64,000 bases of DNA from sequence record PQ863253.1, one strand, 5' to 3'. Below, one piece after another: positions 43,529 to 49,765 of the stretch. The notes under the pieces are model-generated. The model searched no databases. It was not told the origin of the DNA and saw only the letters and a list, made by a program, of their open reading frames with translations. Position numbers and translations under genes: made by a program. The stretch is from Escherichia phage Ptacy1496. Position 1 is the first letter of the stretch, and the number at the start of each line of letters is the position of its first letter.

Positions 43529-45792
43529 TACAATTTACACGCTGCACAATCATCGGCTTTTGGAGTTTCTATTTCATAATCATCAGTACCGGAACCATCA
43601 CGAGTATTATGATAATAGAAGTTTTTAATGCCATAATACCATCCGTATAGCATGTCATCAATCATTACAGACATTGGAACCTTTCCTTTTGGAAAAATCT
43701 GCGGGTCATAGTATGTATTTGCTGAAGCTGATTGACATACCCATTTCAGCATAATAGCTACCTGCGTAAGATAAGGTTTATTACCTTTCTTAGCTAATTT
43801 CCATGTATAATCATAGAGGTCTATGTTATGCTCAATATTGGGCACGACTTGATTAAAGGAGCCCTCTTTTGATTCTTTAACAGAGACTGGTCCACGTGGA
43901 GGCTCGATACCGTTTGTACTGTTAGAAACTTGGGAAGATGACTCACATGGCATAAGTGCTGATAATGTGCTATTACGGATGCCAAAGAGCTTAAGGTCTT
44001 CCCGCAGCGACGACCAGTCACAAACGTATTTTGGAGCTGCGATTTGGTCAATCTTTTTATTGTACCAGTCGATAGGTAATTCGCCTCGAGACCAACGAGT
44101 GTCTGAATAATATTCACAAGGTCCTTTTTCTTTGGCGAGTTTAATGGATGCTTTAATGAGTCCATACTGTAATCTCTCAAATAGTTCATGTGTTAAATCG
44201 TTAGCATCTTCATAAGAAGCAAAGTTACTTGCCAACCAAGCTGCATAGTTAGTAACACCTACACCGAGGTTACGACGCTTTTTAGCTTTTTCTGCTTCAG
44301 GAACTGGATATCCTTGGTAATCCAAAAGATTATCAAGAGCACGAACCTGGACTTCTGCCAATTCATTAATTTTATCTTGGTCTTGCCAGTCAAAATTATC
44401 CAGTACGAATGCAGAGAGAGTACACAATCCAATTTCAGCATCAGGACTATTCACATCATTTGTTGGAATAGCAATTTCACAACACAAGTTGCTCTGACGA
44501 ATAGGTGCCTTTTCACGAATAAACGGAGTATAGTTATTCGTATTATCTATGAACTGTACATAAATCCTTGCTGTTCCTGAGCGTTCAGTCATGAGTAATT
44601 CAAACAGTTCACGGGCTTTAATACGCTTTTTACGAATATTAGGGTCTTTTTCTGCGGCTTCGTATAATTCACGGAAACGGTCTTGGTCTTTAAAATAAGA
44701 ATAATAAAGCTCGCCACCCATTTCATGCGGACTGAACAAAGTAATGTAATCGTTCTTTCCAAAACGTTCCATCATCAAATCATTCAGCTGAACACCATAA
44801 TCCATATGACGAATGCGGTTTTCTTCTACGCCTTTGTTATTTTTCAAAACGAGAAGATTTTCAACTTCCAAATGCCAAATAGGATAATAAGCAGTAGCAG
44901 CGCCGCCACGAATTCCGCCCTGTGAACATGATTTAACAGCAGTCTGAAAATGTTTCCAAAAAGGAATAACACCAGTATGGCGTACTTCACCCATGCCAAT
45001 CTTAGAACCTTCAGCACGAATCATACCAACGTTAATACCAATTCCAGCACGTTTGGAGATATATTCAACAATTGAAGCAGAAGCCTTATTAATAGACTTT
45101 AATGAATCACCTGCCTCAATAACAACGCATGAACTAAACTGCCGAGTTGGAGTACGACAACCAGCCATAATAGGAGTTGGTAATGAAATCTGTCGAGTAG
45201 ATACTGCTTCATAAAAACGAATAACATGTTTTAATCTATCAACAGGTTCATCTTGATGCAATGCCATTCCAATAGTCATAAATGCAAACTGCGGAGTTTC
45301 ATAAATTTGACCAGTGGTTTTATCTTTAACTAAATATTTTTCTTTTAATTGCATCGCCCCGGAATAAGTAAATTCCATATCCCGCTCGTGCTTAATTTTT
45401 GATTCTAAAAATGTAATTTCTTCTGCTGAATATTTTGACAACAATTCAGGGTCATATTTACCTGCATTTACACAGTAAGAAATATGGTCAATAAATGAAC
45501 GTGGTTCATACTGCCCATAAACATGCTTACGAAGAGCAAACATTAAACAGCGTGCAGCTACATATTGATAATCAGGTTCTTCAACCGAAATAGAATTCGC
45601 AGCAGCCTTAATGACAATAGTCTGAATATCATCAGTTGTCATTCCATCACGGAGATAAGATTTAATATTTTCATATAATTCATAAGGATCTACTGATGTT
45701 CCTTCAGCTGCCCAAGATAAAACTTTAATAATTTTTTGTGGGTCAAAGCTCTGAGAAACACCACTACTTTTGATAACATTAATTAATTGCAT
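43528..45792 (-). CDS. nrdA: Ribonucleotide reductase large subunit NrdA
   Basis: 754 aa, T4 NrdA length; ATP-cone N-terminus, C-terminal Cys pair. Confidence 0.95.
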   Translation of the reverse strand: MQLINVIKSSGVSQSFDPQKIIKVLSWAAEGTSVDPYELYENIKSYLRDGMTTDDIQTIVIKAAANSISVEEPDYQYVAARCLMFALRKHVYGQYEPRSFIDHISYCVNAGKYDPELLSKYSAEEITFLESKIKHERDMEFTYSGAMQLKEKYLVKDKTTGQIYETPQFAFMTIGMALHQDEPVDRLKHVIRFYEAVSTRQISLPTPIMAGCRTPTRQFSSCVVIEAGDSLKSINKASASIVEYISKRAGIGINVGMIRAEGSKIGMGEVRHTGVIPFWKHFQTAVKSCSQGGIRGGAATAYYPIWHLEVENLLVLKNNKGVEENRIRHMDYGVQLNDLMMERFGKNDYITLFSPHEMGGELYYSYFKDQDRFRELYEAAEKDPNIRKKRIKARELFELLMTERSGTARIYVQFIDNTNNYTPFIREKAPIRQSNLCCEIAIPTNDVNSPDAEIGLCTLSAFVLDNFDWQDQDKINELAEVQVRALDNLLDYQGYPVPEAEKAKKRRNLGVGVTNYAAWLASNFASYEDANDLTHELFERLQYGLIKASIKLAKEKGPCEYYSDTRWSRGELPIDWYNKKIDQIAAPKYVCDWSSLREDLKLFGIRNSTLSALMPCESSSQVSNSTNGIEPPRGPVSVKESKEGSFNQVVPNIEHNIDLYDYTWKLAKKGNKPYLTQVAIMLKWVCQSASANTYYDPQIFPKGKVPMSVMIDDMLYGWYYGIKNFYYHNTRDGSGTDDYEIETPKADDCAACKL

Positions 45793-46109
45793 AAGTCCTC
45801 AACTTGAAAATCGTCTTTAAACAATCGGTTAACTATATGAGCTATTATATCACCATGACACGGCTTTGGTTTACATGTGCATCCTAGCCTCATTCCACGT
45901 AAAGGCTCTAAATGTGCTTTAGTTATTTCTCCGGATTTAATTCGACGTATAAAATCTTTTTTGAATAATTCAATGGCAGCCTCCCGGCTGCCAGCATCTT
46001 TACCGACGTAATTTCCCCAAAATGTACCACGGTGAATATTAACATCAAAGTCGGATTTATATTTATTCACTACCCGACATAGACGGCCCGCGCGGTGATA
46101 ATTCGGCAT
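45783..46109 (-). CDS. Hypothetical protein, possible DUF4326-like fold (T4 nrdA.1 position)
   Basis: 108 aa; C-terminal [15 protein letters not shown] pattern; 47-nt overlap with upstream ORF. Confidence 0.6.
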
Positions 46110-46338
46110 ATTGTTTTTCCGTTAAAACAGTAATATCATAATAACAGTCAGAAGAAATTTTAATGGTGGAAACTTTATTATCAAAATACTCACGGGTCAT
46201 TTTATGAGTATAATATTTTTTGCCATAAATGATAATAGGCTGATTTGGTCCTGGAACTTCTAACTCGCTTGGGTTAGGAAGTGTAAAAAGAACAACGTCA
46301 GAAGTATCTTTAAATCGTAAAATCATAAATCCTCGCAA
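46063..46338 (-). CDS. Hypothetical protein (T4 nrdA.2 position)
   Basis: 91 aa ORF. Confidence 0.6.
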
Positions 46339-46346
46339 TAATAAAA

Positions 46347-47207
46347 TTATACCGCCATCTTTCCTTTAATTGGCGGGTGAGATACATAGTCGTTAAGAAC
46401 AAAATTATGCGGCTTTGCGAATTGACTCAACCAAAATACCTGTGATTCTGTGTCCCATTCATCAAATTCATCTGGGAATTTTAATTGTAATTCGCATAAA
46501 TCCATAGGTTCACGACGCAAAATTTCTTTACATTGTTCTACGTGATTCATATAGATATGAGTATTACCGCCAGAAAATATCAAATCTCCCGGAATAAGAT
46601 TACATATCTTAGCTACAATATGAACTAACGCAGCATATGATGCAATATTAAATGGAAGACCGAGGAAAACATCTACTGATCGTTGATACCACTGAAGGTC
46701 AAGGTATCCATTACGAACATTAAATTGATAGAACATATGACAAGGTGGTAATGCCATCTGCTTGAGTTCAGCTGGATTCCATGCTGAAACAATTTGACGC
46801 CTATCATTTGGCAGTTTTTTAATACGATCAATAACTTCTATAATTTGGTCTACACCACCAAAATCACGCCACTGTTTTCCATAAATTGGACCAAGTTCAC
46901 CGCTATGGTATCCTAAATCTTTTGCTTGATTTTCGTAATTTTCATCCCAAACTGTTTTGCCTTGGATTAACGAATCATGTTGAATTAATCGCAAATCATT
47001 GACATTTGTGCTTCCCGATAAAAACCATATTAGCTCAGCAATGCAAGCTTTCCAGGCGAGCTTCTTAGTTGTTACTGCAGGAAAACCTTTAGTTAAATCC
47101 CAGCGTAATTTAGTACCGAACAAAGCAATTGTTCCTGTGCCCGTTCGGTCATCGGTTTCATAGCCATTTTCAAAAATGTCTTTAATTAAATCTTGGTATT
47201 GTTTCAT
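46347..47207 (-). CDS. td: Thymidylate synthase (uninterrupted, no intron)
   Basis: 286 aa continuous ORF, T4 td mature length. Confidence 0.95.
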
Positions 47208-47252
47208 TTAGTACCTTATATAAATTATAATACATTTTATGAAGCTAAATAA

Positions 47253-47612
47253 TCAATACGGTTTAGCATCAAATTTTCTCTCAATTTCAGGCGTGAAATA
47301 TAATTCTTTACCGCGTTTGGAAAAGCGACCAATAATATGATAATTATTCTCATCAAACGTGATATTACCAATATCCATAGCTTTCAACCAAATATCGATA
47401 TTTCTATCCAGCTTTATGTCAAAATTCCAATACGGAGAACTATTACCGAAAATACTGCAAGCGGATTCAGTGAAACAACTGCTATAAATCTTGTCTTTAG
47501 GAACTACTAATTGATAGACACCTTTAATAAACTGAGGACCCTGCCACTTTGGCTGTTTCGCGTCTTTTTCTAATAAAATAGGGTAATAATTAAAATTCAT
47601 ATTTTCCGCCAC
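47253..47612 (-). CDS. Hypothetical protein inserted between frd and td
   Basis: 119 aa ORF occupying a gap that is an frd/td overlap in T4. Confidence 0.65.
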   Translation of the reverse strand: MAENMNFNYYPILLEKDAKQPKWQGPQFIKGVYQLVVPKDKIYSSCFTESACSIFGNSSPYWNFDIKLDRNIDIWLKAMDIGNITFDENNYHIIGRFSKRGKELYFTPEIERKFDAKPY

Positions 47613-47620
47613 GCGTTATT

Positions 47621-48447
<827 letters not shown>

Positions 48448-48458
48448 TTTATCTCCTA

Positions 48459-48791
48459 TTAAAAAGGATCAGGAACATATCCACTAGCTTTAATCATTTT
48501 AATTAACGTTAACATTCCTTTATTAACTGCTAGTGAAATTTCATCAAAAACTTCATCACTAAAAAGTTCTAACACGCCCTTTTGAACTTTTAGTTTACAG
48601 CCAACAATTTCGTCATCGCCTATAGTAAATTCGTTTCCGCCAATTCCACCGAAAAACTTAATTACACCAGTTAACTGTCTTCCACGAGAATATGGGTCGT
48701 GTGATAAAGTAATGTGAGTCACCCCAGATACAGTTTTAAATTGGCAGCGGATGTTTACTTGAGCAATTCCAGTTACATGAATGTCAGACAT
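48459..48791 (-). CDS. Hypothetical protein (frd.2 position)
   Basis: 110 aa ORF. Confidence 0.65.
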   Translation of the reverse strand: MSDIHVTGIAQVNIRCQFKTVSGVTHITLSHDPYSRGRQLTGVIKFFGGIGGNEFTIGDDEIVGCKLKVQKGVLELFSDEVFDEISLAVNKGMLTLIKMIKASGYVPDPF

Positions 48792-48801
48792 AATATTTTC
48801 C

Positions 48802-49101
48802 TCAAACAGACTTTTTCACAATTTTCCAATCAGCTTTAAACTGATCAACGTCAGAATGGTAAATCCAGAATCCTGCGCTTTCTCCATCCTCATAAAGAGG
48901 GCATCCATCACATTCATCTTCCCATCCCATGTCACGCAAAAGACGTTCAGCTTTTTCAACAAGTTCAGAATCTTTACCGATGATATTAAAATACCATTTA
49001 CCTCTAACTTCTGAATCTTTGATGCTCTGGCGTTGTAATCTCATTTTATTCTCCTTAGTTGATAAGGCTATAGTATCACTACCATAGCCTGTTGTAAACA
49101 A
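48802..49101 (-). CDS. Hypothetical protein (frd.3 position)
   Basis: 99 aa ORF; start may be internal Met. Confidence 0.6.
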   Translation of the reverse strand: MFTTGYGSDTIALSTKENKMRLQRQSIKDSEVRGKWYFNIIGKDSELVEKAERLLRDMGWEDECDGCPLYEDGESAGFWIYHSDVDQFKADWKIVKKSV

Positions 49102-49404
49102 TTATTTTTGAATTTTATCGAGCCACTTACCAAGCTTAATCATTTCTTTAGTAGCCTTTTCCATACTTCTGAACTTAACCAATAGAGGATAGGTATCGAC
49201 ACCCATAACTAAACTGGTTACAAGACTGTGTTCACCCACAAGCCATAACGAATACGTTTGAATATCGAGCCCGTAATTTCTGTCTTTATGGACCCGTACA
49301 CCCATCACTTCAAATTTCTCACTAGCTTTTTCTACCGCATCCAGGAAATCATCTTTAGTCATATTAGGCCTTAAAAGTTTTTCGCAAAAGTTCAATGATT
49401 TCAT
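49102..49404 (-). CDS. Hypothetical protein
   Basis: 100 aa ORF. Confidence 0.6.
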   Translation of the reverse strand: MKSLNFCEKLLRPNMTKDDFLDAVEKASEKFEVMGVRVHKDRNYGLDIQTYSLWLVGEHSLVTSLVMGVDTYPLLVKFRSMEKATKEMIKLGKWLDKIQK

Positions 49405-49765
49405 CTACATTGTTTTCGTCAACAATGCAGTGAATTTTTGTTACGCCAGAAACCTTGTCTTTAACTTCATCCTCTTCAGAAGTCGGTTCTTTATATTCGC
49501 GGAAACAATAAAACTCTTCTTCACTAAGTTCAAAATAATCATCACCCATACCATCATCATTATAGATTTCACCATTAGCACAAATGATTTCGGTTACATA
49601 ATCAAAGCCATCTAAACTTGATATTGATTTAACTTCAAACCAACCACCATTTTCTTGAATGATGCCGACCATACTAGCATTTGATGAACTAATATCAATG
49701 AAAGATTTAATACGATGTGGATTTAACTCGTATTTTTTGCCGATTTCCATTTTGATTTTCCTCAT
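49364..49765 (-). CDS. Hypothetical acidic protein
   Basis: 133 aa ORF; start may be internal Met. Confidence 0.6.
   Translation of the reverse strand: MRKIKMEIGKKYELNPHRIKSFIDISSSNASMVGIIQENGGWFEVKSISSLDGFDYVTEIICANGEIYNDDGMGDDYFELSEEEFYCFREYKEPTSEEDEVKDKVSGVTKIHCIVDENNVDEIIELLRKTFKA

Follow-up and report, generated by a model that had tools for sequence, protein, structure and literature searches.

The DNA analyzed here, referred to as the window, is a stretch of 64,000 nucleotides (nt) from the genome of Escherichia phage Ptacy1496 (PQ863253.1), and the subject is a small gene, td.1, that lies in it between frd, which encodes dihydrofolate reductase, and td, which encodes thymidylate synthase. 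All coordinates are those of the whole stretch, and frd, td.1 and td are all encoded on the minus strand, where the gene order is frd, td.1, td, nrdA.2, nrdA.1 and nrdA. The upstream neighbor, frd (47621–48202; 193 residues), shares 96–99% identity with frd as annotated in T4, T6 and AugustSocin, and the downstream neighbor, td (46347–47207; 286 residues), is free of introns. The frd stop codon and the td ATG are 413 base pairs (bp) apart (47208–47620), and this interval, which is 100% identical to that of phage vB_EcoM_G8, encloses a single open reading frame (ORF) with a maximal length of 119 residues from a GTG at 47612 (47253–47612). A preliminary description of this DNA had placed a 119-residue ORF in a gap of about 410 bp between genes that overlap in T4, and both parts of that statement are borne out, as in the T4 reference frd extends from 145109 to 145690 and td ends at 145112, giving a 4-bp ATGA overlap with no DNA between the two genes. 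The window itself is a segment of a Tequatrovirus genome.

The edges of the interval are marked by 9-bp direct repeats, as the end of frd and the start of td both read TAAATGAAA. The first copy (47619–47627) covers the frd stop codon (TGA, 47621–47623) together with a seemingly vestigial three-codon mini-frame, ATG-AAA-TAA (47616–47624, minus strand), that overlaps this stop codon, and the second copy (47202–47210) covers the td start codon (47205–47207). A 20-nt spacer (47601–47620) separates frd from td.1 and contains a putative Shine-Dalgarno sequence (GGCGGA/GGA) in front of the td.1 ATG.

Translation of td.1 probably begins at the ATG at 47600 rather than at the GTG at 47612, giving a coding sequence of 115 residues (47253–47600; MNFNYY...), because all Tequatrovirus homologs and all database annotations begin at this ATG, because phage G50 lacks a GTG at the equivalent position, and because in the Mosigvirus phage NHEP36 this ATG and the frd stop codon overlap. 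The motif that precedes the gene, GGAAAAT-ATG, is kept in T2, G50 and Shf125875. In NHEP36 the td.1 ATG occupies the position of the mini-frame, 24 nt nearer to frd, and the mini-frame of the window looks like the relic of an ATGA-coupled start of this type.

That td.1 is a real and expressed gene can be regarded as practically certain. Codon alignments gave 14 synonymous and no non-synonymous differences from T2, 14 synonymous and one non-synonymous difference from G50, and 28–30 synonymous and nine non-synonymous differences from the Mosigvirus alleles, the last corresponding to a ratio of non-synonymous to synonymous substitution rates (dN/dS) of 0.04–0.05, so that the values for the gene range from about 0 to 0.05. 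These do not exceed those of frd and td for the same pairs of phages, and to judge from the alignments td.1 is under strong purifying selection.

The gene is already catalogued and is not new. The same protein is named td.1 in T6 (AY262134.2, ABI48938.1) and RB32ORF229c in RB32, RB14, RB51 and T6, is labeled 'hypothetical protein' in T2 as well as in over 350 further records, none of which gives a function, and is labeled 'putative homing endonuclease' in the records of the BASEL phages. The window protein is 98–100% identical to those of T2, T6 and RB14, and the gene does not differ from T6 td.1/RB32ORF229c in position or length. It also belongs to a protein family, phrog_1928 (annotated as of unknown function), which matches residues 8–115 of the 119-residue ORF with an E-value of 9.5e-36 and whose motifs, Q-x-x-W, G-(I/V)-Y and G-R-F-x-K-x-G, are all present in td.1 (Q16, W19; G27, Y29; G91-R92-F93-K95-G97). 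The earlier statement that the ORF is of no recognizable family therefore stands for Pfam, NCBIfam and PADLOC, where scans of Td.1 and of representatives of its paralog (see below) found no match at E-values up to 1, but it does not stand in general, given the phrog_1928 membership and the annotation as td.1/RB32ORF229c. Other searches were equally silent on function: a profile search of the PDB sequences with Td.1 returned only a spurious match to dynein (E 0.009), and searches of metagenomic proteins, both word-indexed and exhaustive with HMMER, returned, apart from one marginal 838-residue match, only unnamed proteins of 99–119 residues from T4-like contigs, none of them functionally annotated. 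A literature search found no paper discussing td.1, RB32ORF229c or phrog_1928, and two papers on T4 mobile elements do not mention the gene.

Distribution, loss and regain of td.1

At the nucleotide level td.1 is present in 362 phage records, versus 32 with the fused junction of the T4 type, and at the protein level tblastn extends this to 588 phage records, 226 of them at less than 60% identity. In each of the loci below 60% identity that were opened, the homolog directly follows frd and precedes td, the stop and start codons overlapping in most cases, and these loci came from Jiaodavirus JIPh_Kp122, Mosugukvirus PM2, Gelderlandvirus Melville, Kanagawavirus ZX14, Moonvirus CF1, Winklervirus Kc304, the unclassified Klebsiella phage Clarke_MM3 and a metagenomic contig. 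Homologs with 26–63% identity are found at the frd–td junction in at least seven other genera of the Tevenvirinae, often as two tandem paralogs, and in 28 of the 28 loci examined frd, the family member(s) and td follow one another in this order on a single strand. The ORF is thus conserved among relatives, a point on which the preliminary description had left room for doubt. Across genera the identity to the window copy is 32–63% for Td.1, 43–54% for Frd and 70–79% for Td; the divergence of Td.1 is comparable to that of Frd and therefore fits co-inheritance of the two.

In most of these genera a second ORF of about 115 residues lies directly downstream of the td.1 homolog. It is a paralog of td.1 (hhalign probability 99.4%, E 1e-21) that shares the QKKW, HG(I/L)Y and GRFxKxG motifs, and phrog_1928 matches all six of the second-paralog proteins scanned over their full length (best E 8.9e-40). 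This family therefore joins two paralogous subfamilies, the second of which is set apart by some 19 residues (PTIxxYKRNP) inserted after QKKW. Tequatrovirus has one family copy at the junction and T4 has none, and a hidden Markov model (HMM) search found no td.1 paralog elsewhere in the window or in the RB69 locus. Since homologs sit at the frd–td junction in every genus of the Tevenvirinae sampled, td.1 is very probably the ancestral occupant of this site and was deleted in T4. A T4-like contig from IMG/VR (175,774 bp) has in addition a weaker family member of about 150 residues (E 1e-9) that precedes the normal one (2038–2490 and 2483–2794 of the locus L027, respectively), and this longer form may correspond to structural relatives of 135–161 residues in Serratia, Erwinia and Aeromonas phages.

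How the gene was lost from the T4 clade can be read from the repeats. Simulated removal of 47202–47618 (417 bp, comprising one repeat copy and the intervening DNA) reproduces the T4 junction, the ATGA overlap included, with four mismatches in 144 nt, none of which is within about 40 nt of the joint. The alignment with T4 that the preliminary description had proposed for this junction thus finds T4 to be the window less the 417 bp between the TAAATGAAA repeats, and at the level of sequence comparison a microhomology deletion between the two copies is demonstrated for the T4 clade. The same deletion created the ATGA overlap of frd and td in T4. The fused junction is carried by the T4 strains, RB55, RB59, vB_EcoM_112, HY03, SG1, G28, F1 and a few others, which make up the 32 records. 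A T4 counterpart of the ORF, which the preliminary description had considered, is found neither at the junction nor anywhere else, as no member of the family was detected when all six frames of the complete T4 genome were searched with the HMM (best E at least 1). Because the T4 genome is without any family member, td.1 is dispensable and has not simply been relocated.

A parallel history is found in Mosigvirus, where the fused junction is the majority state (127 records). In RB69 frd and td overlap by 4 bp, as in T4, and the RB69 junction is that of NHEP36 minus the 363 bp between two TAAATGAA repeats, with eight mismatches in 128 nt. By this comparison, the RB69 clade is shown to have lost td.1 between the TAAATGAA repeats in the same manner as T4 and independently of it. 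Where td.1 does occur in Mosigvirus, which is in a few phages, the allele resembles that of Tequatrovirus. Thus, in NHEP36 the gene is 89% identical to the window at the nucleotide level, with a synonymous divergence (dS) of 0.67, and is flanked by frd and td with identities of 61 and 74% (dS >2.3), such that identity rises and drops exactly at the ends of the td.1 ORF (1209–1556 of its locus). In Shf125875 the tract resembling Tequatrovirus is longer, comprising RB32ORF231c, frd and td.1 (1205–2405 of its locus), and in both phages the flanks are RB69-like with sharp boundaries. On these alignments the two phages are a clear case of the exchange of a cassette between genera, and they show that a few Mosigvirus phages regained a Tequatrovirus-type td.1 by recombination at the same short junction sequences. 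I-TevI co-conversion was considered as the vehicle of the Mosigvirus cassette and was rejected, as the 5′ region of td in NHEP36 is still RB69-like.

Arbiol et al. are said to have described, in 2010, how T4-type genomes shuffle small ORFs as modular cassettes by way of short conserved junction sequences. The td.1 gene resembles such cassettes in that its loss and gain occur at short conserved sequences at gene boundaries, but it differs in the recombining sequence, which in those cassettes is a promoter stem-loop and here is the 8–9-bp stop/start context, TAAATGAA(A). td.1 can accordingly be lost and regained through recombination at the short stop/start sequences of a tightly packed operon. 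Overall, the T4 and RB69 clades lack td.1, a few Mosigvirus phages have regained it laterally, and across genera it is otherwise inherited vertically under strong constraint.

Predicted structure of Td.1 and competing explanations

The AlphaFold model of Td.1 is of high confidence, with a predicted local distance difference test score (pLDDT) of 90.9 and a predicted template modeling score (pTM) of 0.83. Its elements are in the order β1, β2, β3, helix, β4, β5, and the 115-residue protein is predicted to form a compact β-barrel-like domain that has a single helix and the strand order of the oligonucleotide/oligosaccharide-binding (OB) fold and contains no catalytic motif. The same order is found in the OB-fold domains of SSB, RPA, S1, HIN and Teb1, and lists of weak structural matches to the model consist mostly of OB-fold domains that bind single-stranded DNA (ssDNA) or RNA, namely HIN, Teb1, S1, RecO, SSB, RPA, RuvA domain I and Stn1/Ten1. 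The scores of these matches are at noise level, and so the resemblance is a lead and not a result.

Across the family alignment Q16, W19, G27, G91, K95 and G97 are invariant and Y29, R92, F93 and F102 nearly so, and there is no invariant Asp, Glu, His or Cys and no conserved constellation of these residues. The conserved positions cluster in the β1–β2 loop (Q16, W19) and in the β4–β5 hairpin (G91-R-F-x-K-x-G97), which are the loop and the hairpin that usually bind the ligand in OB folds, and the family is mildly basic, with isoelectric points that are mostly between 7.7 and 9.4. Given this clustering and the aromatic or basic character of the invariant residues, Td.1 is better viewed as a binding protein than as an enzyme, a view that we hold with moderate confidence. 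That it is specifically an OB-like binder of nucleic acids is a tentative suggestion, with the odds somewhat against it; for a ligand such as ssDNA, RNA or an oligosaccharide on the β2–β3/L12/L45 face, the conservation of W19, Y29, R92, F93 and K95 and the mildly basic isoelectric point are indirect evidence. It is decidedly improbable that phrog_1928, with Td.1 and the tandem paralog, represents a Tevenvirinae-specific family of small OB-like binders with an uncharacterized fold and a dedicated role at frd–td; if true, candidate roles would include an RNA- or ssDNA-binding regulator of the thymidylate-synthesis genes, an adaptor of the enzyme complex that makes deoxynucleoside triphosphates, or an inhibitor of host defenses that target nucleotides.

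The account that we favor, with a probability of about 0.8, is that td.1 is a real and ancestral accessory gene that was lost in T4 and whose product binds another molecule. The gene would be an accessory member of the prereplicative nucleotide-synthesis operon (frd, td.1, td, nrdA.2, nrdA.1, nrdA), and its product would have a partner protein or single-stranded nucleic acid as its ligand and would thereby tune the expression or function of the nucleotide-synthesis genes, or an interaction with the host, that matters in nature and not in laboratory hosts. Our best guess is a dispensable binding protein made alongside the enzymes of nucleotide synthesis. In other genera the stop and start codons at the frd/td.1/td junctions overlap by 1–23 nt, and by these overlaps the translation of td.1 would be coupled to that of frd and td in most genera.

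Several points weigh against this account. In the window td.1 has a weak Shine-Dalgarno sequence, GGA, at a distance of 4 nt from its ATG. Both the co-transcription of td.1 with frd and td and its translation are deduced from features of the sequence, that is, from the shared strand, the overlapping or short junctions, and the absence of any terminator-like site between frd and td in the window. The placement of the conserved residues on a binding face is taken solely from the order of secondary-structure elements in the model. Lastly, the way in which td.1 passed into Mosigvirus as a cassette would be compatible with a selfish element as well.

Among the alternatives, the one that survives best, while still unlikely, is that Td.1 is a counter-defense or host-range factor, one that inhibits, for instance, a nucleotide-sensing or nucleotide-depleting system of the host. 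It would then not be a partner of the enzymes of nucleotide synthesis, and its position in the operon would provide early expression and nothing more. Td.1 is small, non-enzymatic, dispensable, strongly conserved, repeatedly lost and laterally transferred between genera, and such a profile is usual for accessory genes of T-even phages that deal with host immunity. The duplication that gave rise to the paralog, with its variable insertion in the β1–β2 loop, further suggests a specificity that is diversifying. However, Td.1 matches no PADLOC defense model and is not similar to any known anti-defense protein, and its place between frd and td has been strictly kept through long periods of evolution, which speaks for a functional tie to the operon.

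Much less probable is the reading implied by the label in the BASEL records, in which td.1 would encode a free-standing homing endonuclease, or be a selfish mobile gene of another kind, with the frd–td junction as its insertion site. The methods used for these phages find such genes by comparative alignment and not by nuclease motifs (PMC8594841), which suggests that the labels came from the patterns of presence and absence in genome alignments. td.1 does show such a pattern, being present in some phages and absent from others at a site flanked by two conserved genes, in Tequatrovirus as well as in Mosigvirus, and the segment is bounded by 9-bp direct repeats, and in NHEP36 its allele is set within much more divergent flanks with breaks at the ORF ends. 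Like segF, segG and mobE, it is a small gene between conserved genes that is patchily distributed among relatives and has signs of lateral movement between genera. Unlike them, it has no nuclease domain or fold, is deeply syntenic and under purifying selection, and has tandem paralogs. No match of Td.1 to the GIY-YIG, HNH, LAGLIDADG, PD-(D/E)XK or EDxHD domains was found in Pfam or NCBIfam at E-values up to 1, the model does not have a nuclease fold, the family has no invariant acidic or histidine residue, and at 115 residues the protein is below the size of any Seg or Mob enzyme of the T-even phages. Moreover, the fixation of the gene at the same position in at least seven genera, with a divergence like that of Frd, tandem paralogs and a very low dN/dS, suits a gene that is beneficial to its host and not a selfish gene in decay. 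The homing-endonuclease label is therefore not supported by the sequence analysis, given the lack of a nuclease motif or fold, the deep synteny, the purifying selection and the tandem paralogs.

It is more improbable still that the segment is an insertion gained by the lineage of this phage and that the overlap in T4 is ancestral. The 9-bp repeats could be read as a target-site duplication, and the fused junction predominates in Mosigvirus, where td.1 looks re-acquired. The repeats, however, amount to no more than the stop/start context that coupled genes have (TAA-ATG-AAA), there is neither a recombinase nor a transposase, and the outgroup genera all carry divergent homologs (26–46% identical) at the same junction. 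At the level of Tequatrovirus the 362 matches with the gene stand against 32 that are fused, and the latter are T4 and its closest relatives. Because of the outgroup synteny the insertion is refuted for Tequatrovirus. The preliminary description had spoken of an insertion or, alternatively, a deletion in T4; the outgroup synteny and the match of the 417-bp deletion uphold its alternative and overturn its primary wording for this lineage. The term insertion is fair for the Mosigvirus phages that bear td.1, but not for the window.

The weakest explanation, under which the DNA would be a non-coding spacer or a regulatory RNA region and the ORF would have arisen in it by chance, has an AT-rich genome and the weak Shine-Dalgarno site in its favor and retains a negligible probability, being excluded because of the substitution pattern (14:0 against T2), which already refutes it, and an Rfam scan of 45500–49500, which found no credible RNA and no family match (the best, a chance match, scored 21.8 bits versus a gathering score of 50), to which are added homologs retained at the protein level down to 26% identity and the confident AlphaFold fold.

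Neighboring genes and wider significance

The 45-nt spacer between td.1 and td (47208–47252) contains the Shine-Dalgarno site of td (TAAGGT) and a promoter-like motif. The latter (47222–47245), just upstream of td, resembles a MotA-dependent middle promoter of T4, with a MotA-box-like GCTTCA separated by 12 nt from TAATTT, together with TATAAT, and as a match to a consensus it is a candidate. In a scan of the window the pattern GCTTYA-N11-13-TANNNT had 19 matches versus 6.6 expected, 13 of the 19 being on the minus strand. The spacer is kept in T2 and G50, is 30 nt shorter and lacks the promoter-like motif in NHEP36, and is absent from T4.

The td gene of the window lacks the group I intron and I-TevI that are found in T4 and T6. 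The intron and td.1 occur in all combinations: T4 has the intron only, T6 has both the intron and td.1, and the window has td.1 only. The td gene is also strongly mosaic within Tequatrovirus, as the window is 80.5% identical to G50 (dS 0.87) and 89% identical to T2 at the nucleotide level in td, compared with 94–96% in frd and td.1. On the other side of frd, between it and frd.1, are two further small minus-strand ORFs, one of 81 residues (48202–48447), which is RB32ORF231c and belongs to phrog_3183, and one of 110 residues (48459–48791) with the Pfam domain DUF7247. T4 has neither, and in their place is a gap of 71 bp, so that T4 appears by this comparison to have been streamlined on both sides of frd. 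Farther downstream in the same operon, nrdA.1 (45783–46109; DUF4326) and nrdA.2 (46063–46338; DUF5496), both on the minus strand and both conserved domains, share an overlap of 47 nt that T4 has as well.

The analysis corrects the direction of the change at this junction. The textbook overlap of frd and td in T4 is a derived deletion scar, RB69 bears the same scar of independent origin, and what T-even phages commonly have is frd, td.1, td. A mislabel of the gene, 'putative homing endonuclease', is spreading through GenBank. Because both of the laboratory models, T4 and RB69, lack td.1, the gene has never been studied. It does not represent a novel type of genetic element, and it is a reasonable if modest candidate for functional work, representing a family of tightly constrained small genes inside the nucleotide-synthesis operon of most Tevenvirinae.
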